The position numbers were made by a program, and so were the translations under genes. Positions 2 through 13,847 of a stretch of 14,119 bases of DNA are shown piece by piece; positions within the stretch are counted from its first letter, which is position 1, and each line of letters starts with the position of its first letter. The notes beneath the pieces were generated by a model that was not told where the DNA came from, did not search any database, and was given only the letters and a program-made list of their open reading frames with translations. Source of the DNA: Candidatus Latescibacterota bacterium (lineage in GTDB: Bacteria > Latescibacterota > UBA2968); contig JAYODI010000010.1 of NCBI GenBank assembly GCA_038279365.1, forward strand, positions 105,966 to 120,084, in the 5' to 3' direction.

Positions 2-3000
2 CAAATTTCGTAATTGAATGACTGTCACATTATCAAATTGACGCATTGCAGTTTCACGAGCTTTTCTAATGCGACTTATCAACCAAAAAAGCACAAACCA
101 AAAACAACAGATGGGCAAAACAGATACGGTTGTCCAAAATAAGCTTTGGTAATAACCATCAATGCCATAAACACATCCCACCGTTAACAAACCACTGATA
201 ACAATGCCAACCCTGCCAATTTCACGCATCCAATCTTTTACCTGATCCAAACCCATATAAACAACAGGAATAAAGATGAGGGTTGACAACATGGACATTG
301 ACAACCCTCCCAAAACAGTAATTGCAAAAGGCGGCCAAATTTCATAATCTCCGCCAAATTTTAGAGCCAAAGGCATAACCCCCAATAAGGTCGTGGCCGA
401 TGTCATTAAAATTGGCCGCACCCGCGACCGCCCCGCAAAAAGCACAGCGCGTTCTCGCCGAAATCCGTGATCTGTTCGCATTGTATTAATGGCATCAATC
501 AACATGATGCCATTGTTTACGGCAATGCCCAACAAAACAATAAAACCCAACAATGCCATTGGGCCTTCTTGTTGTGTTAGCCCAGTGCCAGAAAGAATTA
601 AAGCCCAACAAGAACCGATAATGGCTGTGGGTAAGGTGCATAAAATAATTATAGGTGCTGAAAATGATTCAAAAAGAGATGCCAAAATCATATAAATCAA
701 AAGCGCTGCAATACCCATCATCCAATAATAAATATTTTCTTCTTTTGCTTCTACGATCTCTATGCTGTATTCATCGGGTAAAATCATTTCGTGTATCACA
801 TTGCGAACCAATTGTCTGGCTTCTTCAATTGCAGGTTGAGAATTTAAGACTTCAGTTGTGAATTGATAACCAACCATCGCACGACGCGATTGGTCTGTTC
901 GCAGAATCATACTTCTCCCCTGATCCGTTCTCACATGTGCAATTTCGTCTAAAGGAACGGTGTGGCCATTAGGAGCAAGAATAGGCATCACCTTAAATTC
1001 TTGTAAATTGGGGCTCTCAGTTTTTGGATCGTCAAGTGTTCGCACATCTATAGACACTTCTAAACCAGATGAGGTTAAAAAGGGCACTGATGTTTGGAAT
1101 CCATCAGGACGCGCATCGCCAATACTTGCCAATACAGTTTGGATATTCAGTTGGCGATCAAACATCATCCATTCATTGGGAATCACCTGCACTTCAGGGG
1201 CACTGCGTTCAACATCTGGCCGAATAGACCCAGGATCAACAATCCCATCCAATTCTTCAAGCCGAAACGCCAAATCGTCGGCCAACATCTGCAAAGTTGA
1301 AAAATCATATCCTCGAATGACGGCCTGTTCTGTTTGGGAAACACCCGTCAAATTAAACCCACCCAAGGACGATCTACCCGTTCCGCCACCCGCACGTCCC
1401 CCCCCTCGCCCAGCTCTTACTGGAGCATCATAACCGATAACGCCCTCACTGATTTCGTTTAATTTTTCACTGAGTGTTTCTTTGATCTGCTCTACAGAAA
1501 TCTCATTAGGTCGTTCTTTTAAGTTGTGCAGAAGCACTGTTATGCTGGCCTGATTTTCTTGAATACTGGTTAAAAAACGGTCGAGCCCAGACACATCCCG
1601 CACGGCACTCTCAACTTCAGAAACCACCTCTTCCGTGGCTTCCAATGTGGCCCCTTCGGGCAAACTGACATAAATTGCAAACTGAGATTCTTCTTGTCTA
1701 ACATCTTGCTGTAACATAAAGAAAAACGAGGCAATAAGCGTTATAACAAATCCCAAAACGATACTTATGGTAACCAATGCCCGATGCCTTAAACCTGACT
1801 TAAGAAAAACAGTGTACATTTGCAATAAAATGCCACGATGAGAAGGTAAACGCGAAGCAGCCGAAAGGGTATATGCAGATAAAGCAGGAACCAATGTGAG
1901 GGCAACCAACAAGGAGGCCATCAATGGAAAGGTCATTGCAAGTGCCAATTCTCGCAAAATATCCTGAGCATCACTTTGAATAAATACAACTGGTAAAAAA
2001 ACGGTTACCGTTGTTGCTGTTGCTGCAACCACAGCACGAGCAACCTCTTCCGTACCTTGGCGCGCGGCTTCAATGGGAGACTTTCCAAGCTCAAAATGCT
2101 TAAAAATATTTTCCATAACCACGATCCCATTGTCTGTCAACATGCCAACAGCCAAAGCCAAACCGCACAAAGACAATACATTTAAACTCAGATCCCAAGC
2201 ATACATTAAGTTGAATGTCACAAGCAAAGAAACAGGTATGGCCAACAACAACACCAACACAAACCGAAAATTTCTCAAAAACAAAAACAGAACAAAAAGC
2301 CCCAAGAGGCCCCCAATGATGGCGGCTTGTTGAAGCGTATTGAGTGCCCCTTCCATCATTTCGGCTTGGTTATTGGTAATGATAACTTCAATTTCTTCAG
2401 AGGCAACATCTTGATTGATATTGGCAATGGCCTTTTCAACTTTACGTGAGACATCAATCAAGTTGGCTTCGTCATCTTTTTGAATGCGTATTCCTACAGA
2501 AGGTTTTCCGTTTACCCGTTGCACATCCGTTTGGGTTTGAGCACCATATCGAATATTTGCAATATCACCCAAGTGAAGGGAGATTTCGGGTTTCACAACC
2601 ACATCTTCTATTTGTTTGATATCTTGAAATTGCTCATGCATGCTTACCGACAATGCTTGATTGCCATCATATACATGCCCCAAATATTGACGCCTTTGAT
2701 TTGCGGCATTGATCCGACTTCTGACCTGAGACAATGACAATTGGTGCGCCCGAATCATCACTGGGTCTACAATAATTTCAATGGCTTCTCTGCGCCCTCC
2801 CAATACTTGTGCGGCCACAACACCATCCACAGCTTCCAATTCTGGCCGTATTTTTTGTTCTGTAAACTCTCTCAGCCAATTTAGATCACCATCGCCCAAA
2901 ACATTAAGTTGCATGATACTTGCGCTTAAATCTGAAGAATCGAATCGCTGCACATTTACCCGACTTCTTTCTGGAAATAAGGCTTGCAAACGGTTCATTC

Positions 3001-3331
3001 GATTTTGCAATTGTAAAAGAGCAAACTTCATATCGGTATCGGGTGCATAAGAAATGCGTATACCCCCAGAATTTGCCCGACAAAAAGACTCCATTACTTG
3101 AACACCATCTAATTTCCCAATCTCTCCTTCGGCTAAGACCACCATCTCTCGTTCAATTTGTTCGGCAGAAGCCCCATTGAGATTAAACGTGATAAATATT
3201 TCAGGAAAAACGAGTTCGGGAAATAATTGCAAGGGCAACCGCGTCCAGGAAATCACACCCAAAATAGCAAGGGCAAGAAAAAACATGGTTGTTGTAACCG
3301 GTCGACGCACAGCAAAGCCAGTAAGTGTCAT
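2..3331 (-). CDS. RND (AcrB/AcrD/AcrF family) permease, second paralog, 3'-truncated by the window edge (>1110 aa), with a C-terminal extension that is a probable fused ABC ATPase domain
   Basis: Not in the ORF track (no in-frame stop in the window); translated by hand. ATG at 3331 overlaps the upstream TGA (ATGA). Begins MTLTGFAVRRPVTTTMFFLALAILGVISWTRLPLQLFPELVFP; TM4 GLALAVGMLTDNGIVVMENIF; TM10 LLGIAVNNGIMLID; TM11 RSRVRPILMTSATT; TM12 VLGGLSMSMLSTLIFIPVVY; then ~80 further residues ending ...NVTVIQLRNL at the edge. Confidence 0.93.
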   Translation of the reverse strand, partial: MTLTGFAVRRPVTTTMFFLALAILGVISWTRLPLQLFPELVFPEIFITFNLNGASAEQIEREMVVLAEGEIGKLDGVQVMESFCRANSGGIRISYAPDTDMKFALLQLQNRMNRLQALFPERSRVNVQRFDSSDLSASIMQLNVLGDGDLNWLREFTEQKIRPELEAVDGVVAAQVLGGRREAIEIIVDPVMIRAHQLSLSQVRSRINAANQRRQYLGHVYDGNQALSVSMHEQFQDIKQIEDVVVKPEISLHLGDIANIRYGAQTQTDVQRVNGKPSVGIRIQKDDEANLIDVSRKVEKAIANINQDVASEEIEVIITNNQAEMMEGALNTLQQAAIIGGLLGLFVLFLFLRNFRFVLVLLLAIPVSLLVTFNLMYAWDLSLNVLSLCGLALAVGMLTDNGIVVMENIFKHFELGKSPIEAARQGTEEVARAVVAATATTVTVFLPVVFIQSDAQDILRELALAMTFPLMASLLVALTLVPALSAYTLSAASRLPSHRGILLQMYTVFLKSGLRHRALVTISIVLGFVITLIASFFFMLQQDVRQEESQFAIYVSLPEGATLEATEEVVSEVESAVRDVSGLDRFLTSIQENQASITVLLHNLKERPNEISVEQIKETLSEKLNEISEGVIGYDAPVRAGRGGGRAGGGTGRSSLGGFNLTGVSQTEQAVIRGYDFSTLQMLADDLAFRLEELDGIVDPGSIRPDVERSAPEVQVIPNEWMMFDRQLNIQTVLASIGDARPDGFQTSVPFLTSSGLEVSIDVRTLDDPKTESPNLQEFKVMPILAPNGHTVPLDEIAHVRTDQGRSMILRTDQSRRAMVGYQFTTEVLNSQPAIEEARQLVRNVIHEMILPDEYSIEIVEAKEENIYYWMMGIAALLIYMILASLFESFSAPIIILCTLPTAIIGSCWALILSGTGLTQQEGPMALLGFIVLLGIAVNNGIMLIDAINTMRTDHGFRRERAVLFAGRSRVRPILMTSATTLLGVMPLALKFGGDYEIWPPFAITVLGGLSMSMLSTLIFIPVVYMGLDQVKDWMREIGRVGIVISGLLTVGCVYGIDGYYQSLFWTTVSVLPICCFWFVLFWLISRIRKARETAMRQFDNVTVIQLRNL

Positions 3332-6300
3332 ACGTGCGCCTTTCCCCGCAATCGATCTACCATCTCATACATGACGGGAATAACCAACAAAGTCATTAAG
3401 GTTGATGTGATAAGCCCCCCAATCACCGCGATGGCCATTGGCGCACGCAAATTTGCCCCATCACCAAATCCAACCACCATTGGAAAAAGTGCCAAAATGG
3501 TTGTGGCGCTGGTCATCATAATTGGGCGCAAACGGTCTTGAGCACCTTGTAACACGGCTTCACGAAGGGGGTGTTGTGTGCGCAATTGATTGATCCTGTC
3601 AACCAGCACAATGGCATCATTAACAGCTATGCCACCTAGCATAATGATGCCAATATATGCCATTACACTCAAAGGTTCTTGCAACATCCAAAATGCAAAG
3701 ACCACACCAACCCCAGCAAGCGGAACAGATAACATCACAGTAAATGGATGGAGCAAAGACTCAAACAATGAAGCCATTACCATATAAACCAAAACAATGG
3801 ACAGGATGAGTGCAAATTTTAAGCTGTCAAAAGACTCTGTGCGTTGCCGTTCTTCTCCACCAATGGTGATGCGATACCCACTGGGAACAACCATTTGTGC
3901 GATCACCAAGTTAAGTTGTTCTATGGCATTGCTCAACGACATGCCATCTGTCACATATGCCGAAATGCGACCAACTCGTTTCTGGCTTTCTCTCAAAATC
4001 TCTCGCGGTCCTTCAATAATCTGCATATCCACAACATCACCCAAAGTCAAAACTGCACCACCACTTGCTTCTATACGAAGGGTTCCCAATTGATTAATAT
4101 CTAAATCTTCGTATTTTACTCGAATATTTCTTGTGCGCTGATCTTTGGAAAGTTCCCCTGCAATTTCCCCTGACAACTGTCTTTCGAGTGTTCGAATAAT
4201 GGTTTGTGTATTCAATCCAAAGGCTGATGCAACCTCTTCTCTCACACTCAAATCCACTTCAGGTTGCCCACCTTGAAAACTGGTTTGTACATTGTATACA
4301 GCAGGTAACGCTGCCATCCTCTGACTGATATCTTTGGTTAATCGTGTTAAAATGTCGAGATTGTCTCCGCTTACCTCAACTTGGATCGGTGCATCTTGCC
4401 CCCCCATGACTCCTTCAAGTGCAGTTTCATGCATATGATATTCAATTTCCACATCTGGCAATTCCCGCAAATGAGGGTCTATGATATCAACTATTTGACT
4501 GACACGTAACAAACGCTCTTTTTTAAGGGCAACAATAACGCTCGAACGATTAGGCCCGGTGGGGTTACCTGCCCCAGAAATTTTGGAAGGGTCAACACCT
4601 GAGCGTATATAAACATGGTCAATGTTGTTCTGGCCTACTTCTGCAACAATTTGTGCTATTCGATTGGCCACACGATCCGTCAATTCCAACCGGGTTCCTT
4701 CTGGCATAGTCAAATCAACCTGAAACAATCCCTGATCTTCACGTGGAATAAACTCTGTTTGCAATCCCTTAAACAGGTATGCAGTTGCTGCGAGCATAAT
4801 TATTGTTGTCATCACAATAAACAACTTGTGGTTTAATGCATTTAATAGAACGACACGATAACGTTTTGCACGTACAATATTTGATTTTTCTGGTTTCATT
4901 TTTTTTAAGAAACGCGCCGTCAACATGGGGACGGTTGTCATGGCAACGACCAAAGAGCAAACCAACGAATAAACAACCGTCCAAGCTTGGTCTTGGAAGA
5001 GTTCGCCAGCCAAACCTTGCACATAAACAATGGGTAAAAAAACAGATACTGTTGTAAGTGTTGAGGCCAATATGGCTACACCCACCTCACTTGCCCCTTG
5101 TGCCGATGCCGTTTGGGCATCTTCACCCATTTCTAAATGTCTGTATATGTTTTCGATTACCACAATGGCATTGTCGACCAACATGCCCGCCCCCAATGCC
5201 AACCCTCCCAAAGTCATGATGTTTAGAGTTAATGATTGGAAGTACATCAATGTAAAAGTAGCCAGTATAGAAATGGGAATGGCCACACCAATAACCAGTG
5301 TGGCCGTCCAATTACGCAAAGCAAGCAACAAAACACCAATGGCCAAAATGGCTCCATAAAGAGCCGATTCTTCTACTTCATCGATGGCATTTTCTATAAA
5401 CCTGGCCTGGTTTTCAACCACAACAAATTGAAGCTCAGGCAAATCGATCATTAAAGCATCTAAAACATCTGTAACCGTGCGAACAACATGAACCGTGTTG
5501 CTTCCCGCCTCTTTGTAAATGGCCAACCCCAAACACACTTTCCCATTGAGGCGAACAATAGTTTCTTGTTCTTGATATACCAAACCTACTTGCCCGACAT
5601 CCTTTACCCGCACAGGCACCCTTACAACACTTGCATCAGCACCACTTTCTCTTCGTTCACCAACAATCAGTTCTCTGACATCGTTTTCATCATTTAGGCG
5701 TCCCAACGCTTTTACCAAAAACGATTGTTGGCCCTCTTTGAGCGTTCCACCCGATATATCTGAATTGGCAGCTTGAATTCTTTCAATGACTGCTGTAGAT
5801 GTCAACCCAAAGGCTTCTAATAAATAAGGATCCAAGATAACTTGAACCTCTTTTTCAACACCCCCTTCTCGCTCTGCAGATGCAATGCCTTCTAATGACT
5901 CCAATTTGGGTTTAATAAGGGTTTCGACCTTACCTACCAAAGCATCCAAATCGTCATCTCCCACAATGGCCAATCGCATCACCGAAGAAGCCTGTGGGTC
6001 TTCCCGGGTCACATCCAATAGGGTAACTTCTTCATCTGAAGCATACACTGCAATTTTTTTTTGCACATCCAACAGTGCAAAATCAATATCAGCATCCCAA
6101 GAAAATTCTGCAATTACCACCACTTGCCCAGAGCGCGTAACAGAATAGACACGCTTGACCTGCCTGACGGTACTGATGTCTCGCTCAATACGCCGTGTAA
6201 AACGTTCTTCCATTTCTTGGGGTGCTTTTCCGGGCGCACGCAGGTCTATGGTAACCACTGGCGTTTGTAAGTCTGGGAGCAAATCGGTGCCCAACCGATC

Positions 6301-6387
6301 AAATGAAATCCAGCCCAAAAGAACCACTGCCAAAGTGGCCATGGCAATGGTTACCGGATAACGGGTTGCAAAATGAGAGAGTGTCAT
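3328..6387 (-). CDS. RND (AcrB/AcrD/AcrF family) efflux permease, 1019 aa
   Basis: Typical RND length and motifs: N-terminal FATRYPVT, TM4 GLALGAGMLVDNAIVVIENI, STLTTVSVFLP, YMVMASLFES, TM10 GIAVNDAIVLVD, RLRPIMMTS, AIAVIGGLITSTLMTLLVIPVMY. Confidence 0.96.
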   Translation of the reverse strand: MTLSHFATRYPVTIAMATLAVVLLGWISFDRLGTDLLPDLQTPVVTIDLRAPGKAPQEMEERFTRRIERDISTVRQVKRVYSVTRSGQVVVIAEFSWDADIDFALLDVQKKIAVYASDEEVTLLDVTREDPQASSVMRLAIVGDDDLDALVGKVETLIKPKLESLEGIASAEREGGVEKEVQVILDPYLLEAFGLTSTAVIERIQAANSDISGGTLKEGQQSFLVKALGRLNDENDVRELIVGERRESGADASVVRVPVRVKDVGQVGLVYQEQETIVRLNGKVCLGLAIYKEAGSNTVHVVRTVTDVLDALMIDLPELQFVVVENQARFIENAIDEVEESALYGAILAIGVLLLALRNWTATLVIGVAIPISILATFTLMYFQSLTLNIMTLGGLALGAGMLVDNAIVVIENIYRHLEMGEDAQTASAQGASEVGVAILASTLTTVSVFLPIVYVQGLAGELFQDQAWTVVYSLVCSLVVAMTTVPMLTARFLKKMKPEKSNIVRAKRYRVVLLNALNHKLFIVMTTIIMLAATAYLFKGLQTEFIPREDQGLFQVDLTMPEGTRLELTDRVANRIAQIVAEVGQNNIDHVYIRSGVDPSKISGAGNPTGPNRSSVIVALKKERLLRVSQIVDIIDPHLRELPDVEIEYHMHETALEGVMGGQDAPIQVEVSGDNLDILTRLTKDISQRMAALPAVYNVQTSFQGGQPEVDLSVREEVASAFGLNTQTIIRTLERQLSGEIAGELSKDQRTRNIRVKYEDLDINQLGTLRIEASGGAVLTLGDVVDMQIIEGPREILRESQKRVGRISAYVTDGMSLSNAIEQLNLVIAQMVVPSGYRITIGGEERQRTESFDSLKFALILSIVLVYMVMASLFESLLHPFTVMLSVPLAGVGVVFAFWMLQEPLSVMAYIGIIMLGGIAVNDAIVLVDRINQLRTQHPLREAVLQGAQDRLRPIMMTSATTILALFPMVVGFGDGANLRAPMAIAVIGGLITSTLMTLLVIPVMYEMVDRLRGKAHV

Positions 6388-6390
6388 ACT

Positions 6391-7449
6391 TCAATTCCCC
6401 TGCCCAGTAACCCGCACTCGGGTGCGTGGACTTAGGGTTTCATAATTGCTTGTTATAATTTGATCACCAACATCCAAACCCGATATGATTTCAACTTGCT
6501 CTCGATCTTCCAACCCCGTTTCAACTTCACGTTGCTGGGCTCTTCCTTCTTCTTCAACAAAAACGACTTTTTGTCCTCGACGACGCTGAACCATTTTTCG
6601 AGCAATCAACACCACATCTTCATGTAATTCAGTAATAATATCTGCCTGAACAAACATCCCTGGCCTAAGGAATAATTGATCGTTTTCAACTGTGCCTACA
6701 GCTCGAAAGGTTCGGGTTGCAGCATCCAACACTGGATTGATCGCAGATATTTCTCCCTCAAAATATTGATCGACAAATGCATAATTTCGAACCCGCAATT
6801 TTTGTCCTATGTTTACTTTGCTGATCTGTGCATTTGGAATTTGTAAATCAATTTTAACCTTAGAAAAGTCAACAATTTTGGCAATCAAAGTATTTTGATT
6901 GATGAGTGTGCCCTGTGTAATGTCTGAAACTTCTGAAAGCACACCACCAATGGGCGCGCGTAATGTTGTTTTGTCAATTTGAATCTCAGCATCTTCATAA
7001 CTTGACTTGGCATCCTGCCAAACCTTTCTGGCATTTTCTACTTCTTTTTCAGTCGTAAGACCTCTTTGAAACAAAACTTCTTGCTCGGCAAGAGTCTTTC
7101 GGGCTGTATCCATTGCCAACTTTTTAGATGAACTGCGTACCCCCACCATCCACTCTTGGTTTTTAAGGCGTGCAATAACTTGCCCTTTGGACACGGCGGT
7201 TCCTTCCGAAACCAGGCGACCATCTGCTTCCTCAAAAAAAAGATCTCCTCGGATTTCGGTGACAATTTGTGCTTCTCTTATGGGGCGCAATGTACCTGTC
7301 GCTGTTACAATCGCTTCAATATTGCCAGAGGTAACAGGCTTAACCGTAACGGGAACTGTCAAATCAACAGTTCTTTGTTCTGTTTGTCTGTTACATCCAC
7401 AAAATAACAAAGCGATAACAAAGCACGTACCCAATCCCCATCGCACCAT
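6391..7449 (-). CDS. RND periplasmic adaptor / membrane fusion protein, probable lipoprotein, 352 aa
   Basis: Signal-like N-terminus ending in a lipobox-like LLFCGC; lipoyl half-motifs (EGTAVSKGQVIARL, LRAPIGGV) flanking an alpha-helical hairpin; LRPGMFV; C-terminal VETG...VEIISGLDVGDQII. GGAGG ribosome-binding site at 7456-7460. Stop codon lies 3 nt before the RND start. Confidence 0.95.
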   Translation of the reverse strand: MVRWGLGTCFVIALLFCGCNRQTEQRTVDLTVPVTVKPVTSGNIEAIVTATGTLRPIREAQIVTEIRGDLFFEEADGRLVSEGTAVSKGQVIARLKNQEWMVGVRSSSKKLAMDTARKTLAEQEVLFQRGLTTEKEVENARKVWQDAKSSYEDAEIQIDKTTLRAPIGGVLSEVSDITQGTLINQNTLIAKIVDFSKVKIDLQIPNAQISKVNIGQKLRVRNYAFVDQYFEGEISAINPVLDAATRTFRAVGTVENDQLFLRPGMFVQADIITELHEDVVLIARKMVQRRRGQKVVFVEEEGRAQQREVETGLEDREQVEIISGLDVGDQIITSNYETLSPRTRVRVTGQGN

Positions 7450-7516: not shown

Positions 7517-10500
7517 TTAAAACCTCAATCCTCCTTGTTGATTACCACCAACCCTTCCACGGTTTCCCCTTCCACCAAAATTCCACGTGGGCATCTCTTC
7601 TTCATAAACATCAAATGGTTTGTCGGGGTCAATAAAACGCCAACGGATGGCATCGGCATAGAGCATTCCTGGAGACAAATCGGGCAATTCAACCCTTGCA
7701 ATATCGCCTTTTTCAAACTTATAACGCCCCAAAGAATTCCACCCCGCTTTCATTTTATCTCGTTCAAATTGAAGGGTGTCTACTGTGTTTTGGTGAAAGA
7801 CCAACAATGAAAACAATGCCCCAATACGCATTCGTCTTGCCATTTCTGGGTCTAAAAAATAATAAGCAACATCATACTCACCAGTTTTGGGTATTGGGGT
7901 TGTCCAAATAGCGGGTTGCGCCCCATCGCCAGGACTTTTATATCGATAATTGGTTTCGTATCGACCATAAGCCATAGGCATTGTACGCTCCTTCCAGTTC
8001 CCACCCTGAAGTTCTGGTCGTAAATATTTTCGTTCGCGGCGCACGGGCATCTCAAACCCATCGTCGTCGTTATCAACAACCAACTCAATATCCGTTTCTT
8101 CTGAATGCGTTACATCTTTCACATATGCTTCTGGAAATCCCGTCACCACCTGGTCGGGTATGCGAACCGGTGACATGAGGATTCGACGATTCCGAGAAAA
8201 AAACGGTTCGATCATTACCCGAAAAGGTTGTTCCCACATGATCATAGACACTTCAACTTCTTGTCCACCTTCAATTTCAACCCCCTTAACCGCCTCATCC
8301 CCTCTGCCCATTGCGGACACTTGAACAAACCCTCGTCCAGGTTCCCCATTGCGAATCCGAACAATAACTTGATAAACCACCATGCCAAAACCATCATCTA
8401 CTTTATTTGCGATCGCTCGAGTAAGGGTATAACCTGGCACATCCGTACTATGCAACCAATCTCTCATTATTTTTTGAAGGTTTTTATTGGATTCACTTTT
8501 TAATGTATCTCCAACAGCAGCACGTTCAAATGATGCAAAATCTATTTCTTCATACTGATATTCCTTTTCAACATCTTCTACCAATCCCAAAAATTCACTT
8601 TCGCCCAAATAAGCCTTTAGCATTTTGAACATGGCTGGGCCTTTGGCCTCCACCACCTGGCGGTAAAGTTTGGCTTCTTCAGTGGGGTTGAGTTCTGAAA
8701 ATGAACGCTGTTGCATTTTGGCCACAAGCGTATCCCAAGCGGCACTGTTTTCATTAATATTCGGACGCTGAAAACCACCTCGACTTCGCCCCCCTCCTCG
8801 CCCAGCATAAAGCGATGATTGCAAATTGCTGCTCAGATCTTGTTGTAAAAACAGTGGCATCCCTTGTTTTACTAAGGCATAATGGTCTCCCGAAAAAGAT
8901 TTATTAAATGACCATAACTGCACAACTGGGCTACGAAACACACCCGATTGAGAAGAACCTCGCCCACTTGAATTGTTAAAAAACGTGCTCATAACAGCTC
9001 TGACAAATAAATCTCGTTTGATCTGTTTGGGTTCCCGATTGCCCCGGCTGCGCTTTTCTTGGAGGGAAAAATCACGCCGAAAACGCTGCCGATAGAGGGT
9101 GTCTTCTTCTATCATAAGCACCCCTGGGCTTGTCAATCCACCAGTTTCCTCCCAGCCTTCCCAATACCATTGAACTTGAAAAGGCACTTCCACCACAGAA
9201 AGTCGGGGGTATGGATAAAACAACCCAGACTCTTGTTCCATGGCATCTATTATTTGCCCCAAAGCTTCAATTACTTCTTCCTTTGCATCTTCAAAAAAAG
9301 CCACTTGCTTCCAGTGAGATGGGTGCACATAAAGCACACAGTTTATGTCGTGAATATTCGCTTCAATTTTTTTATATATCCCAGCATTTAATGATAACTG
9401 TGGAATCGGTTTTTCTGAGATCCATTCCTGTTTAATTTTTGTATCTGTCGTGTCAGTTTGGGTCGGACTGCCTTGGGTAATGACTTCCAAGCCTTTGGAA
9501 AAAAACAAGGTCAAATGCGTTGTTGAAAACGATTCGGTGCGCCCATTTTCATAACCATAATCCACCCCCGATACCGGATACCATCGGCTACGCGCTGGCA
9601 AAAATACGGAATTCTTTTCTACCCACGCCGTCATAGAACCTTTATTTATTGGCCCATCACGTTTTTTTAATCTGGGCTCACCAAGTTCACGCTGCAGGTC
9701 GAAACCTTCTACATCTATATTTCCCTGGTAAGCCACTTGAAGGACCAGGCTATCCCCCAATGCCAACGCTTGCTCTAACTTTATTTTTATCACACTGCCA
9801 ACTTGCATCCACTTGAGATCTTGGTGATTGATTTTTAATAACGAAACTTTAAGGCCAGAATTAAGCGATAAAATCAATGTGTCTATGGCAACTTTATTTA
9901 CATTTTTTAGATGGATATTTCCACCCACTTTAAGAGGAATATTTTGATTTAATTCGATGGATAAGTCATAATGTGTAATAGATGCTATGGGTTTTGTTGT
10001 CTGAGACTTTTGAATTTGCAGCAGATAAGAACGATAGTCTCGCAGGGATTCTTCAAATGCATTTAATTGCCAATAAGTCACGCCTGCTCCGACCAAACCC
10101 ACAATTGCCAAAGCTCTTCCAAACCAACGCCAAGACAACGATTGTGGCAATCGGGGATATCGATCTATGGATAACCCAAAAAGCCCCAACGCCAAAAGCA
10201 AATACAGCAAACGAAGCACATAAACACGATCAATATTTCCCAAACCCAGCAGATCGGAATAATACAAAGGGGCATAAAATGCTCCAAAATCGAAAAGACC
10301 ATCGTATCGTCGCCCCAAAACCAAAAGTACACCCAGTGCATAGGCAATTACCAGCAACGCTACGGCAGCTTGTCTGCGAAAAACGGCCCCTAAAAAAAAT
10401 GTAAACGAAGACATATAGATCAAACCTGGCACATTCATCAATAACAAATAACCCAAATAAGGCCGGAGAGAAAGTGGCTCACCTGTAATACTTATTTTGG

Positions 10501-10897
10501 CTGCTTGGATGGCCAGTGTTAAAACCATGACACCTATACTTAATGAAACCAATGCCCCAACAACGCCCAAATATTTACCAGTAACCAACTCGGCGGTCGA
10601 AATGGGTCTTGCTGCCACCACCTCATAGATATGTGCACGTTCATCAGCAGCCCGAAAGTCACCAACGATAAACGCAATTACAATGGTCTGCAAGAAGCTA
10701 TAGACATAAAATGGCATAAATGTGCCCAAACCCATGTAAGGCAGTTCAACGCCTCGGGCTTCGGCAATGGCCAATCCAACACCAATAAGCACAGGTATCC
10801 CCATGCCTAAGCCACCCAAAATGCGAAACTTGGTGGTGCGCAATAACATTTTGCGTTCATATCGGGCAACGCCTAAGATATTCCAAAAAGCAATCAT
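7517..10897 (-). CDS. Fusion protein, 1126 aa: ABC-2-type permease + degenerate M1 aminopeptidase-like domain + golvesin/xanthan-lyase C-terminal-like beta-sandwich domain
   Basis: N-terminal ~270 aa has several hydrophobic segments and ABC-2 hallmarks (VARYERKMLLR, ARPISTAELVTGKYLG). The middle has M1-scaffold motifs (ITHYDLSIEL, WYPV, YPYPRLSVVEVP, KGPAMFKMLKAYLGESEF, RDWLHSTDVPGY) but no HExxH. The C-terminus reads VVDNDDDGF...AIWTTPIPKTGEYDV...GWNSLGRYKF...YADAIRW. Start overlaps the ATPase stop (ATGA). Confidence 0.82.
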   Translation of the reverse strand: MIAFWNILGVARYERKMLLRTTKFRILGGLGMGIPVLIGVGLAIAEARGVELPYMGLGTFMPFYVYSFLQTIVIAFIVGDFRAADERAHIYEVVAARPISTAELVTGKYLGVVGALVSLSIGVMVLTLAIQAAKISITGEPLSLRPYLGYLLLMNVPGLIYMSSFTFFLGAVFRRQAAVALLVIAYALGVLLVLGRRYDGLFDFGAFYAPLYYSDLLGLGNIDRVYVLRLLYLLLALGLFGLSIDRYPRLPQSLSWRWFGRALAIVGLVGAGVTYWQLNAFEESLRDYRSYLLQIQKSQTTKPIASITHYDLSIELNQNIPLKVGGNIHLKNVNKVAIDTLILSLNSGLKVSLLKINHQDLKWMQVGSVIKIKLEQALALGDSLVLQVAYQGNIDVEGFDLQRELGEPRLKKRDGPINKGSMTAWVEKNSVFLPARSRWYPVSGVDYGYENGRTESFSTTHLTLFFSKGLEVITQGSPTQTDTTDTKIKQEWISEKPIPQLSLNAGIYKKIEANIHDINCVLYVHPSHWKQVAFFEDAKEEVIEALGQIIDAMEQESGLFYPYPRLSVVEVPFQVQWYWEGWEETGGLTSPGVLMIEEDTLYRQRFRRDFSLQEKRSRGNREPKQIKRDLFVRAVMSTFFNNSSGRGSSQSGVFRSPVVQLWSFNKSFSGDHYALVKQGMPLFLQQDLSSNLQSSLYAGRGGGRSRGGFQRPNINENSAAWDTLVAKMQQRSFSELNPTEEAKLYRQVVEAKGPAMFKMLKAYLGESEFLGLVEDVEKEYQYEEIDFASFERAAVGDTLKSESNKNLQKIMRDWLHSTDVPGYTLTRAIANKVDDGFGMVVYQVIVRIRNGEPGRGFVQVSAMGRGDEAVKGVEIEGGQEVEVSMIMWEQPFRVMIEPFFSRNRRILMSPVRIPDQVVTGFPEAYVKDVTHSEETDIELVVDNDDDGFEMPVRRERKYLRPELQGGNWKERTMPMAYGRYETNYRYKSPGDGAQPAIWTTPIPKTGEYDVAYYFLDPEMARRMRIGALFSLLVFHQNTVDTLQFERDKMKAGWNSLGRYKFEKGDIARVELPDLSPGMLYADAIRWRFIDPDKPFDVYEEEMPTWNFGGRGNRGRVGGNQQGGLRF

Positions 10898-11814
10898 ATT
10901 TTCAGGTCTTCATTTTGTGAGATTTTGTGAGAAATCTCCGCATCATCCTCATCCATAAAATAAACATATGCATCTTCCAAATTGGGTAAAACACTCCTTG
11001 CTTGCAAGGGAGGTTTTGCGTCTCCTACCATGCGCAATTTCAATAAACCACCTTCAACCTGTACGTTTACCACCCGAAATTGCCTCGATAACTCTTCAAA
11101 GCGCGTATCATTAACTTCCATTTCCCACGTTTTATTTTGGGCTTGTTGAATTAAGTTTGATGGGGAACCACGAAAAACCAATTTACCCATTTTCAAAATC
11201 GCAACATCATCACAGATACTTGAAATATCGCCCACAATATGGGTTGAAATGAGAATTGCTCTGTCTCGGCTTAAGCGTGCCAATATCCCTCGAAAACGAA
11301 TGCGTTCTTCCGGGTCCAAACCGACAGTAGGTTCATCGACAATCAAAAACTCTGGATCACCCAAGATGGCTTGAGCAATGCCCAAGCGGCGCATCATGCC
11401 ACCAGAAAATGTGCCCGATTCTCGATTGCGGGCATCCAATAATCCCACATCATTTAAGGCCTTTTCGACACGTAACTGGCGGTTCTTAGAGTCATGTAAT
11501 CCTGCCAGCAATGCCATATAATCTAAAAATTCAATTGCAGTAAGTTTGGGATACGTTCCAAAATGTTGTGGCAAATATCCCAAACGCTTTCGGATCTCAG
11601 TACGGTTATGCTTTAAATCCAAATGATCCATTTGTACCCTACCCGATGATGGCTCAATTTGGGTGGATAAGATTTTAATTAAGGTCGTTTTCCCTGCACC
11701 ATTGGGGCCAAGCAATCCAAAAGTGCCGGGAGGAATATCAAAGGTCACTTGATCAAGGGAAGCCCTTGGGCTTTTGGGATACACTTTTGTCAGATTTTGA
11801 ATTTTTATAATCAC
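10894..11814 (-). CDS. ABC transporter ATP-binding protein (ABC-2/DrrA-like exporter ATPase), 306 aa
   Basis: Walker A GPNGAGKT, Q-loop YLPQ, signature FSGGM, Walker B FLIVDEP, H-loop STH, C-terminal PNLEDAY. GTG start. Confidence 0.96.
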   Translation of the reverse strand: MIIKIQNLTKVYPKSPRASLDQVTFDIPPGTFGLLGPNGAGKTTLIKILSTQIEPSSGRVQMDHLDLKHNRTEIRKRLGYLPQHFGTYPKLTAIEFLDYMALLAGLHDSKNRQLRVEKALNDVGLLDARNRESGTFSGGMMRRLGIAQAILGDPEFLIVDEPTVGLDPEERIRFRGILARLSRDRAILISTHIVGDISSICDDVAILKMGKLVFRGSPSNLIQQAQNKTWEMEVNDTRFEELSRQFRVVNVQVEGGLLKLRMVGDAKPPLQARSVLPNLEDAYVYFMDEDDAEISHKISQNEDLKI

Positions 11815-12004: not shown

Positions 12005-12910
12005 TCAAGCAGGAATCATCTCGAACAAGTTGGCAATGGTAGCAATCAGTTTTTCCGGTTCAGCCTTTGAAATGTGTCCATCAGCTCCAACAGCTTCACA
12101 TTTAGAAACCATTTGATCTGTTATTAGAGATGACAATATCAACACTTTTAAGCTTGGAAATTGCAGCTTCACTTTTTTACACAAAGTTAATCCATCTAAA
12201 ACAGGCATTTCAATATCAGAAATGAGCACATCAAACCCCTCTTCTGGATGGGTTCTTTCCATAGAGACAATTTGATCGTATGCCTCTTGCCCATTGCCAC
12301 ATATTACAACACGCTTAAAACCTGCCTTATCCAACATTTTGGAAAGTTGCTGTCGAACCAATGCAGAGTCATCTGCCACGATCAAACGCCAAGCACTGGG
12401 ATCAAAACCTGAAACCACATCCAAAGAATGGGTTTCTTGATGCTTTCTGCCCACAACTTCGCCTACTATACTTTCTAAGTCCATAATCATTATTTCACGG
12501 TTTTCAATTGGCACAATACCTGTAATCATGGCTTGTATTTTTTGCACCAAATATGATGGAGACTGACTCTGATCCCAAGATATCCTATAAATCTTGGTGA
12601 GTCCCTCAACTAAAAACCCATAAGAAGATTTATTAAATTCACAAATGACTGCCACCATATCAGTTGCAGGCTTTTTTTCATGCCCAAAATATGTACCTAA
12701 ATCTATAAGAGGTAGTGATTTGTCACGAAACAAAAACATACCCTTAACCGCTGGGTGTAAACCATATATTTTGGTAAGGCTTTTGGAATCATAGCTCACA
12801 ATCTGTTTTACCTTTAATACATTCACACCATAACTTTGCCCACCAACCAACAATTCCAAAACTTCCACTTCATTGGTTCCCGTTTCGAGCAAAATACCTT
12901 TGTCGTTCAT
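12005..12910 (-). CDS. cheV: Chemotaxis protein CheV (CheW + receiver domain), 301 aa
   Basis: CheV-typical N-terminus ILLETGTNEVEVL, YGVNVLKVKQIV, HPAVKGMFLFRDKSLPLIDL (CheW-like). The REC domain has IVADDS, phosphoacceptor SDIEMPVLDG, LILSS and HISK. Confidence 0.9.
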   Translation of the reverse strand: MNDKGILLETGTNEVEVLELLVGGQSYGVNVLKVKQIVSYDSKSLTKIYGLHPAVKGMFLFRDKSLPLIDLGTYFGHEKKPATDMVAVICEFNKSSYGFLVEGLTKIYRISWDQSQSPSYLVQKIQAMITGIVPIENREIMIMDLESIVGEVVGRKHQETHSLDVVSGFDPSAWRLIVADDSALVRQQLSKMLDKAGFKRVVICGNGQEAYDQIVSMERTHPEEGFDVLISDIEMPVLDGLTLCKKVKLQFPSLKVLILSSLITDQMVSKCEAVGADGHISKAEPEKLIATIANLFEMIPA

Positions 12911-13046: not shown

Positions 13047-13847
13047 TTATCCAGTATAGAGGTTATATCGATTGCCACGGGCAAAACCAACCAGGGTGAT
13101 TTTTAATGCCTGAGCCAACTCAACCGCCAATGATGTGGGCGCCGATATGCCAATAACCACAGAAATGCGTCCCATTGCTGCTTTTTGTATAATCTCAAAA
13201 CTCACCCGCCCACTCACAACAAGCGTTGTTGCCGTTCCTAACCCATCACTTTCAAATAATTTCCCAATGACCTTATCTGTTGCATTGTGTCGTCCAACAT
13301 CCTCAAAACACGCCAACAAATCTCCAGAGCGTGAAAATGCAGCCACGGCATGAACACCCCCAGTTAAATCAAATAGGGGTTGTTGCGAAGACAATTTTGT
13401 CACACATTGGGCTACTTGATCACTTTGAATGGGTAAAAAAACAGGAAATGGTTGACACCTTTCGATCAAGTCTTCAATTTGAGTTCTGCCACAAACACCA
13501 CAGGCAGAACCAATTAGCGTTCCTCTTTTGATATTAGTTTTTTTTTCAAAGTTCAATAGGACACCGGGTGCTGGTTGCACATCGACCACATTCCCATATT
13601 CTGGCGTGCCAAGTCGCCCACAATGAAAAACTTTTCCAATTTGACTGCGTTTTTCAACAAACCCTTCAGAAAAGAAAAAACCTTGGGCCAACAAATAATC
13701 ATGACCTGGTGTTCGCATCGTGGTGGCAATGGTTTCACCAGACAACCGCAATTCCAAAGGTTCTTCTATTGCCAACCAATCATCTTGAGCGTAATTCATA
13801 TCTCCAAATTTTACAATCCTTTGGATTTTAGATCTTTCTTTTATCAT
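13047..13847 (-). CDS. fdhD: Formate dehydrogenase accessory sulfurtransferase FdhD, 266 aa
   Basis: EEPLELR, MRTPGHD...GFFFSEG, SACGVCG (CxxC), TGGVHA, EDVGRHNATDKVIG, SGRVSFEIIQKA, SAPTSLAV, LVGFAR. Confidence 0.96.
   Translation of the reverse strand: MIKERSKIQRIVKFGDMNYAQDDWLAIEEPLELRLSGETIATTMRTPGHDYLLAQGFFFSEGFVEKRSQIGKVFHCGRLGTPEYGNVVDVQPAPGVLLNFEKKTNIKRGTLIGSACGVCGRTQIEDLIERCQPFPVFLPIQSDQVAQCVTKLSSQQPLFDLTGGVHAVAAFSRSGDLLACFEDVGRHNATDKVIGKLFESDGLGTATTLVVSGRVSFEIIQKAAMGRISVVIGISAPTSLAVELAQALKITLVGFARGNRYNLYTG

Follow-up and report, generated by a model that had tools for sequence, protein, structure and literature searches.

An RND permease gene that continues into a split ABC ATPase domain within a conserved gene module of Latescibacterota and related lineages

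We analysed a stretch of 14,119 nucleotides, here called the window, from a Candidatus Latescibacterota bacterium (assembly GCA_038279365.1, contig JAYODI010000010.1, positions 105,966 to 120,084 of the forward strand; G000:C46:105966-120084 in our numbering). The second of its two adjacent genes for resistance-nodulation-division (RND) permeases, RND2, reaches the left edge of the window with its frame still open. RND2 and the ATP-binding cassette (ABC) ATPase encoded beyond this edge are one gene of ~1562 codons, RND2::NBD2. Its protein consists, in order, of a 12-transmembrane-helix (12-TM) RND permease of the AcrB/Mdt type, two further TM helices, the first strand of an ABC nucleotide-binding domain (NBD), an insertion of ~170 residues, the remainder of the ABC domain and a C-terminal extension. 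The best explanation, to which we give a probability of about 0.6, is that the fused gene is part of a conserved module in which its ATPase powers one or more ABC-2-type permeases while being held on RND2. One conserved polypeptide holds an RND permease together with an ABC ATPase that is catalytically intact by its motifs, two types normally taught as alternatives; in the accessible part of PMC8277102, tripartite efflux systems are classed by their inner-membrane engine as ABC, RND or major facilitator superfamily systems.

One gene encodes an RND permease and an ABC ATPase

The window carries the first 1110 codons of the fused gene at 2..3331 on the minus strand, translated as 1110 residues with no stop, and these encode the RND permease, TM13, TM14 and the beginning of the first ABC strand. 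The Pfam family ACR_tran (PF00873) matches RND2 at residues 5-1027 with 615 bits (cut-off 28), covering profile positions 3-1019 of 1021, and its same-genus orthologue P0003 with 619 bits; RND2 is a full-length AcrB/HAE-1-like permease of the RND superfamily. The neighbouring gene RND1 (3328..6387, minus strand) encodes an unfused RND paralogue of 1019 residues, and its TGA stop overlaps the ATG of RND2 (ATGA). RND1 ends in ...IPVMYEMVDRLRGKAHV followed by the stop, ~12 residues past the point equivalent to the end of TM12 in RND2 (IPVMYEMVD). A preliminary description of the sequence had RND1 ending at this distance from TM12 and RND2 running on stop-free, and the translation agrees with it exactly.

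The tail of RND2 after TM12 reads IPVVYMGLDQVKDWMREIGRVGIVISGLLTVGCVYGIDGYYQSLFWTTVSVLPICCFWFVLFWLISRIRKARETAMRQFDNVTVIQLRNL. On the minus strand, the end of TM12 (LSTLIFIPVVYMGL, residues 1015-1028) is found at 248..289, TM13 (IGRVGIVISGLLTVGCVYGI, residues 1038-1057) at 161..220 and TM14 (LFWTTVSVLPICCFWFVLFWLI, residues 1064-1085) at 77..142. A basic cytoplasmic stretch (SRIRKARETAMRQ, residues 1086-1098) comes directly after these hydrophobic segments at 38..76, and the start of the first ABC beta-strand (VTVIQLRNL, residues 1102-1110, the tail ending as NVTVIQLRNL) lies at 2..28. Both extra helices were detected by hydropathy, as hydrophobic 19-residue windows at 1041-1059 (Kyte-Doolittle mean 1.69) and 1067-1085 (2.15), and they correspond to helices 22-43 and 46-78 in a structural model of the same-genus orthologue. 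Hydropathy and sequence in this way bear out the two extra hydrophobic segments and the basic stretch that had been proposed from the letters.

The source assembly (6.03 Mb in 199 contigs, 98.5% complete) contains 44 scaffold gaps of 10 N and 60 of 100 N, and one of the 10-N gaps (C46:105956-105965) ends one base left of the window start. As this run directly abuts the window, the edge is an assembly gap inside the contig and not a contig end; the contig measures ~120 kb, of which 106 kb lie left of the window. On the far side (G000:C46:104661-105953, minus strand), an open frame begins with the first full codon and encodes 431 residues up to a stop (P0002), of which the first 150 are hydrophobic and residues 161-302 match ABC_tran. 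This remainder of the fused gene codes for the insertion with its four helices and for the ABC ATPase. After the gap, a GTG or an ATG could serve as an internal start; a product beginning there would lack the invariant Lys and Tyr of strand 1 described below.

Logan contigs from four public metagenome runs were compared with the sequence around the gap (L003:9300-10700, where L003 is G000:C46:95966-109500). One contig each of the runs X2, X3 and X5 bridges the gap with 60 letters and shows 0 to 1 other differences, and contigs of X1, the possible source run, end at the gap edges. The bridging runs come from two studies, X3 from the same one as X1 and X5 from another. One base before the gap, the 60 letters and two bases after it make 63 bases, or 21 codons, so that the frames of RND2 and P0002 are one. 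A metagenome protein of 1562 residues (P0008) shows the same arrangement: it is 92% identical to the RND2 part over residues 1-1110, ungapped, and its residues 1132-1562 are 84% identical to P0002, which leaves 21 residues for the gap. Because P0008 is collinear with both halves and has these 21 residues, we infer that the 60 letters hold no stop. The preliminary description had left room for a stop just past the edge and for a missing Walker A or B motif; what lies there is a 60-letter in-frame bridge, and both motifs occur in the remaining sequence. None of the 20 public-run records that contain the stretch is registered as RNA.

RND2 and the ATPase could be separate genes, joined by an assembly or scaffolding artefact or left by a broken gene, and the scaffold gap between the two parts in the source genome and the X1 contigs ending at its edges would fit this explanation. 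Independent contigs nevertheless bridge the gap in frame and single-contig genomes carry unbroken frames, and we give it practically no weight.

The split nucleotide-binding domain

Extension to the left of the window, which had been suggested as a search for ABC motifs, brought out the following beyond the gap: Walker A GPNGAGKT (GLLGPNGAGKTT), the signature FSGGMKQR with its SGG, Walker B IIVVDEP with its DEP, and the H-loop STH. The fused ABC_tran domain (PF00005) scores 96.2 bits in Pfam against a cut-off of 25, and the proposed architecture of ACR_tran plus ABC_tran is found in the two halves of the gene in the source genome (615 and 96 bits). In an alignment of 47 sequences reaching down to 39% identity, the Walker A motif, the Q-loop, the signature, Walker B with its Glu, the D-loop and the H-loop with its His are invariant, together with a Lys and a Tyr of strand 1 (K94 and Y96 in model numbering). 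Since every catalytic residue is invariant in these 47 diverse sequences, the fused ATPase likely hydrolyses ATP.

The heptapeptide VIQLRNL at the window edge had been taken for the first strand of an ABC domain. In relatives it runs on as TKIYGAPG(K/R)F..EW; the Lys and the adenine-stacking A-loop Tyr of LTKIY are the two invariant residues, and the surrounding L, T, G, P, E and W are nearly invariant. The motif is still present at 20-24% identity and resembles IIKIQNLTKVY of the free ATPase encoded in the same module (N-terminus MIIKIQNLTKVY). Walker A follows ~190 residues downstream.

We modelled residues 1020-1563 of P0003 with AlphaFold2 from a 47-row alignment (mean pLDDT 82.7, pTM 0.64). 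The motif forms strand 86-96 of the model, which together with the invariant Lys and Tyr corroborates the reading of VIQLRNL. After it come a helix at 101-118, the insertion with four helices (120-147, 151-176, 183-205 and 208-232), a further helix at 246-257 and the NBD core from strand 269 on. Solved NBDs match the model starting at residue 83-86, which is aligned with their own residue 1-2. TM0544 (1vpl) gives Z 27.9 and a root-mean-square deviation (rmsd) of 1.6 for 234 of 238 residues in the model range 85..538, and 4yer_B and LptB (4p31_B) give Z 29.0 and 27.7. The strand segment folded without the NBD core is disordered (pLDDT < 50). Additionally, the GldA profile alignment starts at position 16 on the fusion and at position 1 on the free ATPase. 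In the model, the strand before the insertion would be strand 1 of the NBD sheet, in an NBD fold that includes the A-loop aromatic residue. Strands 1 and 2 are ~170 residues apart, and a single contiguous ABC domain of 200-250 residues is not found. The ABC ATPase fusion of the preliminary description is supported by the complete ATPase beyond the gap; the distance of ~190 residues to Walker A and the four-helix insertion after strand 1 had not been foreseen in it.

Because the number of extra helices is even, both pieces of the NBD would stay cytoplasmic. The region TM13-18 was modelled alone (pLDDT 75.7) and compared with 48,161 chains, among which it has no clear structural relative; the best match, the small Mrp subunit 7d3u_F over 84 residues, has a Z of 8.2, in the range of generic helical bundles. 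None of the 18 junction sequences shares a Pfam family for these helices, and hhalign gives a probability of 0.9% for a relation between the junction and Perm2, the small permease of the module. To our knowledge, the sole insertion at the site between NBD strands 1 and 2 is the ~30-residue soluble 'regulatory insertion' of CFTR NBD1.

The position of the insertion invites the explanation that ATP binding by the fused domain has a purely regulatory or tethering role, such as sensing the energy state of the cell or recruiting an ABC unit, and does not power transport. The insertion of CFTR NBD1 (residues 404-435), which lies at the same site between strands 1 and 2 in the NBD beta-subdomain, is regulatory, as far as the available part of PMC2217481 goes. 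The Walker B Glu, the H-loop His and all other catalytic residues, invariant in the 47 sequences, speak against such a role, and we regard it as very unlikely.

Distribution of the fusion

We searched 40 relatives with P0002, taking an E value below 1e-150 as the mark of an orthologue. In 34 of them, many of which are single-contig genomes, the ATPase region is contained in a single open frame of 1571 codons or more; a contig end cuts the orthologue in two more (G005 and G009), and the last four have only generic ABC matches. Start-to-stop open reading frames of orthologues encode 1563 (G002), 1562 (G001), 1574 (G015) and 1570 (G029) residues. Within the phylum, the junction region was found with an E value of 1e-10 or better in 79 of 168 genomes, the source genome included, and in 24 of 49 genera.

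A profile scan of one genome per species with an eight-sequence junction alignment found 79 loci, all in metagenome-assembled genomes (MAGs). By title labels, 44 of the loci belong to Latescibacterota or Latescibacteria, 12 to Acidobacteriota (including Thermoanaerobaculia), seven to Gemmatimonadota-type labels, three to KSB1 or Zhuqueibacter, three to 'Deferribacteres', two to Bacteroidota or Cytophagia and one to Caldithrix, and seven have no taxon label. Searched with the C-terminal 544 residues, the database proteins among the matches listed all contain both PF00873 and PF00005 (120 of 120). Most of these listed proteins are 1540-1620 residues long, and their sources include Latescibacterota, Gemmatimonadota, Acidobacteriota, KSB1 and Calditrichaeota. 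They are annotated as 'efflux RND transporter permease subunit', 'ATP-binding cassette domain-containing protein' or 'AcrB / ABC-type multidrug transport system ATPase subunit', and because the pipelines use such plain RND permease or ATP-binding cassette names, the architecture is invisible in the annotations. The fusion occurs in MAGs of Latescibacterota, Acidobacteriota, KSB1 and Calditrichota. In the first three of these groups and in related uncultured lineages the family is common, and hundreds of metagenome contigs contain relatives.

A more distant member, used to scan metagenomes, matched at least 603 stretches. Of 80 related metagenome loci, 47, hand-picked for upstream DNA, were examined, and the 33 left out were short or near-duplicate and included all those titled gut metagenome. 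Among the examined loci, 38 have frames of 1570-1607 codons and nine have frames that stay open up to the edge of the locus; no locus shows a split. These loci bear on three database clusters of 483 residues (P0166, P0176 and P0179) that start ~10 residues before strand 1. We considered the 483-residue entries as stand-alone proteins made of strand 1, the four helices and the NBD, and rejected this, since no stop separates the RND part from strand 1 in any of the 47 loci; they are probably truncated gene calls. The same entries are what else could be brought forward for RND2 and the ATPase being separate genes; against it stand the 47 unsplit loci, and a separate product would lack the A-loop strand. 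Longer frames of some relatives (1790-2612 codons) were also considered as further fusions with RND1 or Perm2 and were rejected, the extra length being open extensions upstream of the first start in the six loci inspected. In L124, a Thermoanaerobaculia chromosome, and in L120, the fused gene or the adaptor gene is broken into two overlapping frames at one point. Each looks like a single frameshift, which could be genuine or an error of the assembly.

Gene module, proposed mechanism and likeness to known systems

On the minus strand of the window the gene order is ATPase1, Perm1, adaptor, RND1 and RND2::NBD2, and Perm2 follows left of the window. ATPase1 (10894..11814) is the free ABC ATPase of 306 residues, and its stop overlaps the start of Perm1 (ATGA). 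Perm1 (7517..10897, identified with Pfam) is a large permease of 1126 residues whose N-terminal membrane part is ABC-2-like, with Pfam matches below threshold. Its extracytoplasmic domain is large. It also carries a Golvesin_C domain (54.8 bits, cut-off 31.6) and a weak Peptidase_M1 match (E 5.8e-06, below cut-off) that has no HEXXH; because the match is weak and this motif is missing, the M1-like domain is probably non-catalytic. The periplasmic adaptor, a membrane fusion protein, is encoded at 6391..7449 (TIGR01730 RND_mfp, 178 bits, cut-off 94.9). Perm2 is a small permease of ~250 residues, probably a divergent ABC-2 permease by its sequence; five of the six members compared match ABC2_membrane_3, below the gathering score. 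Its gene overlaps the end of NBD2 (ATGTTAA), the third such stop/start overlap of the module besides those at ATPase1/Perm1 and RND1/RND2 (ATGA in both). In the region left of the window (L003), more 10-N gaps fall within the Perm2 gene and within one flagellin gene of a divergent pair.

All six parts of the module are present in five of six annotated loci, namely two from Latescibacterota, two of Acidobacteriota type and one KSB1-like; in the sixth, the analysed DNA ends before RND1 could appear. The six-part module persists where ATPase1-Perm1 is inverted, and in three of the six loci ATPase1-Perm1 is a divergently transcribed unit. Full-length homologues of Perm1 (30-51% identity) co-occur with the fusion in all five distant genomes searched and adjoin it in four. 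A TolC-type gene with an OEP domain stands between Perm1 and the adaptor in two of the six loci, which makes a seven-gene module: in a KSB1-like MAG (L123:14314-15873, Pfam OEP E 4e-39) and in a 'Cytophagia'-labelled MAG (L121:16021-17544, E 2e-45). The source genome has 26 OEP-domain matches, all on other contigs, in over a dozen frames with about two domains per protein. Within the source genome, ATPase1 is the paralogue nearest to NBD2 (43% identity, E 1.6e-67; the next match has an E of 1.6e-42).

Two proteins of the module, RND2 and Perm1, have an oddity in common. RND2 carries a low-complexity stretch rich in Gly and Arg in its extracytoplasmic part (RAGRGGGRAGGGTGRSS, window 1367-1417, residues 639-655), which is present again in the orthologues P0003-P0006. 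Perm1 is likewise Gly/Arg-rich outside the membrane, at GRGGGRSRGGFQR (window 8765-8803, residues 699-711) and, C-terminally, at GGRGNRGRVGGNQQGG (window 7529-7576, residues 1108-1123). Upstream of the module lie a CheV-type gene (CheW and receiver domains; window 12005-12910) and fdhD (13047-13847), which are probably unrelated to the pump because G029 has a thiamine pyrophosphate (TPP) enzyme upstream instead.

The complex of the C-terminal 550 residues of the fused protein with Perm2 was predicted with a score of 0.52, compared with 0.00 for the best control; at least 90% of the contacts recur between runs, and the partner has a pLDDT of at least 72. The mark used for this score was passed by 116 of 157 solved complexes and by two of 215 mismatched pairs; the passes at 0.60 or under comprise no more than 18 of the 157 solved complexes, together with the two mismatched pairs. 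The prediction lends weak support to a pairing of NBD2 with Perm2. Since this is a textbook type of NBD-permease pair, the pass may reflect likeness to solved ABC transporters.

Considering these parts together, the likely function would be that of an ABC-2 exporter tethered to a heteromeric RND pump. RND1 and RND2 would form a hetero-oligomer like that of MdtBC, and the fused ATPase, attached covalently to the RND2 protomer, would energise the ABC-2-type permease or permeases encoded in the module. An ATP-driven step would extract or flip the substrate at the inner membrane, and a proton-driven RND step would expel it via the adaptor and an outer-membrane channel, both within the same adaptor-linked machine. 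As a speculation on stoichiometry, in an RND1(2)-RND2(1) assembly the single NBD2 may pair with ATPase1, and Perm2 with Perm1, as a heterodimeric ABC transporter, and this would resolve the mismatch between a three-fold RND and a two-fold ABC unit. The complete form of this proposal is a single envelope-spanning exporter with two energy sources, in which ATPase1/NBD2 and Perm1/Perm2 are welded via the six extra helices onto the RND2 protomer of an RND1(2)-RND2 trimer; we hold it tentatively, as possible but short of likely.

A different stoichiometry would divide the module in two. In an RND1(1)-RND2(2) trimer, an NBD2 homodimer would drive a Perm2 homodimer, and ATPase1-Perm1 would be a separate transporter sharing the operon and the adaptor. 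The canonical motifs on both faces of NBD2 make a homodimer feasible, translational coupling links Perm2 with the fused gene just as it links ATPase1 with Perm1, ATPase1-Perm1 forms its own divergent unit in half of the six loci, and pumps of the MdtBC type are heterotrimers according to the accessible part of PMC8277102. Nevertheless, the two units remain linked in five of the six loci despite the rearrangement, and ATPase1 and NBD2 are each other's closest paralogues, as expected of heterodimer partners. We consider this arrangement fairly unlikely.

The ATPase could also act directly on the RND permease, with TM13-18 passing on the movement of the NBD, so that RND2 would be ATP-driven or ATP-gated instead of, or besides, being proton-driven. 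The covalent attachment of the NBD via six helices that have neither a Pfam family nor a clear structural relative fits this explanation. The departure of RND2 from the canonical proton relay could also be cited for it. In its AcrB/MexB form, this relay consists of D407 and D408 in TM4, K940 in TM10, and R971 and T978 in TM11; the numbering was checked on MexB and AcrB-like chains. RND2 departs from it at two positions, with Asn for D408 and for K940, and keeps the equivalents of D407, R971 and T978. The same pattern, D-N in TM4 and N-N in TM10, is found in 10 of the 19 RND paralogues of the source genome, RND2 included. Being common to these, it is a trait of a subfamily and not a loss linked to the fusion, and we rejected relay loss as a mark of an ATP-driven RND protein on the same grounds. 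An NBD moreover requires a second NBD to pair with, and the fusion is always accompanied by genes for ABC-2-like permeases. Direct drive of RND2 is in our judgement unlikely.

Apart from the fusion, among the RND permeases of the source genome the TM4 motif is 'VDN' instead of the AcrB-type 'VDD' in 12 of 19, and the TM10 motif is 'VNN' instead of one containing Lys in 11 of the 18 that align. The D-D pattern with Lys occurs in a single paralogue (on C123). To judge from these motifs, the proton relay of a large VDN/VNN subfamily must differ from that of AcrB.

Several points weigh against the explanation in which the fused ATPase powers the ABC-2-type permeases while held on RND2. Every carrier is a MAG or a metagenome contig and the fusion is known from sequence data; in the source genome itself, the 60 bridging letters would be stop-free by the evidence of homologues. 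The membrane topology of the insertion is that predicted by the model, and hydropathy marks just two of its four helices in the source genome as clearly hydrophobic and the other two as marginal. Perm2 matches ABC2_membrane_2 in five of six members (best E 5.9e-06), below the gathering score, and hhalign gives a probability of 10.6% for its relation to the membrane part of Perm1. The Perm1 homologue of one KSB1-type genome (G170) lies on a different contig, and the module of the source genome, like the Latescibacterota versions in general, contains no gene for an outer-membrane factor. The partners in NBD pairing and the joint oligomer of RND1 and RND2 are those that we infer.

If the parts do work as one machine, the system would illustrate a way of coupling ATP-driven with proton-driven transport and of docking a two-fold ABC unit on a three-fold RND assembly, and it would mean that an NBD can accommodate a membrane insertion behind strand 1. 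A literature search in full text, subscription journals not being covered, found no natural RND-ABC fusion; the papers listed for fused RND proteins dealt with engineered fusions or Rnd GTPases. With the same coverage, it returned no NBD split by membrane helices, and the accessible portions of work on RND, efflux or ABC proteins of Latescibacteria are likewise without the fusion. We rate the system as a tripartite efflux system with a composite RND and ABC engine, whose proteins are in the databases and functionally undescribed.

Among known systems, it is like the MdtABC-TolC and MuxABC-type pumps in that two adjacent RND genes follow one adaptor gene, in conserved order, and in some lineages the module includes an outer-membrane factor. 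MdtB (9lyq_B) is the best solved-structure match of RND2 segments (E 2e-25 and 1e-23), and the NCBIfam models of MdtC and MdtB are among the best matches of RND2, below their cut-offs: 522 bits against 1250 for RND_permease_2 (NF033617), 333 against 1774 for MdtC (NF007905) and 305 against 1584 for MdtB (NF007798). Unlike MdtBC, RND2 has two plus four extra helices, an ABC ATPase and a D-N / N-N relay instead of D-D / K, and the module includes ABC-2-like permeases and a second ATPase.

MacAB-TolC likewise joins an ABC ATPase to a membrane protein, with a periplasmic adaptor and an outer-membrane factor as partners. The NBD of MacB (5lj9_B) superimposes on the model of the fused NBD with Z 26.9 and rmsd 2.3 over 220 aligned residues. 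In MacB, a four-helix permease follows an N-terminal NBD (PMC8277102, accessible part), whereas the NBD of the fusion is split and lies C-terminal to a 12-TM RND permease; the Pfam families found in P0003 are ACR_tran, MMPL, ABC_tran, AAA_21 and AAA_23 only, with the NBD at the C-terminus. The likeness to CFTR, taken as an analogy, is one of position only and no sign of homology: its insertion has ~30 soluble, mobile residues with kinase sites, as described in the available part of the source cited above, and the one described here is ~170 residues long and contains helices of membrane type.

By family models and by fold, the fused NBD comes closest to ATPases of ABC-2-type exporters, namely GldA, DrrA, NosF, TM0544 (1vpl) and TM_1403 (4yer). 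GldA (TIGR03522) matches with an E of 4e-52 and 177.5 bits, below its cut-off of 402.6, and DrrA (TIGR01188) with 3e-48 and 164.7 bits, below its cut-off of 312.45; the NosF chains 7osf_B and 7o0y_B are among the Foldseek matches. The fused NBD shares with these ATPases a C-terminal extension. They are free, contiguous domains of ~300 residues, whereas the fused NBD has its strand 1 set apart and is attached to an RND permease.

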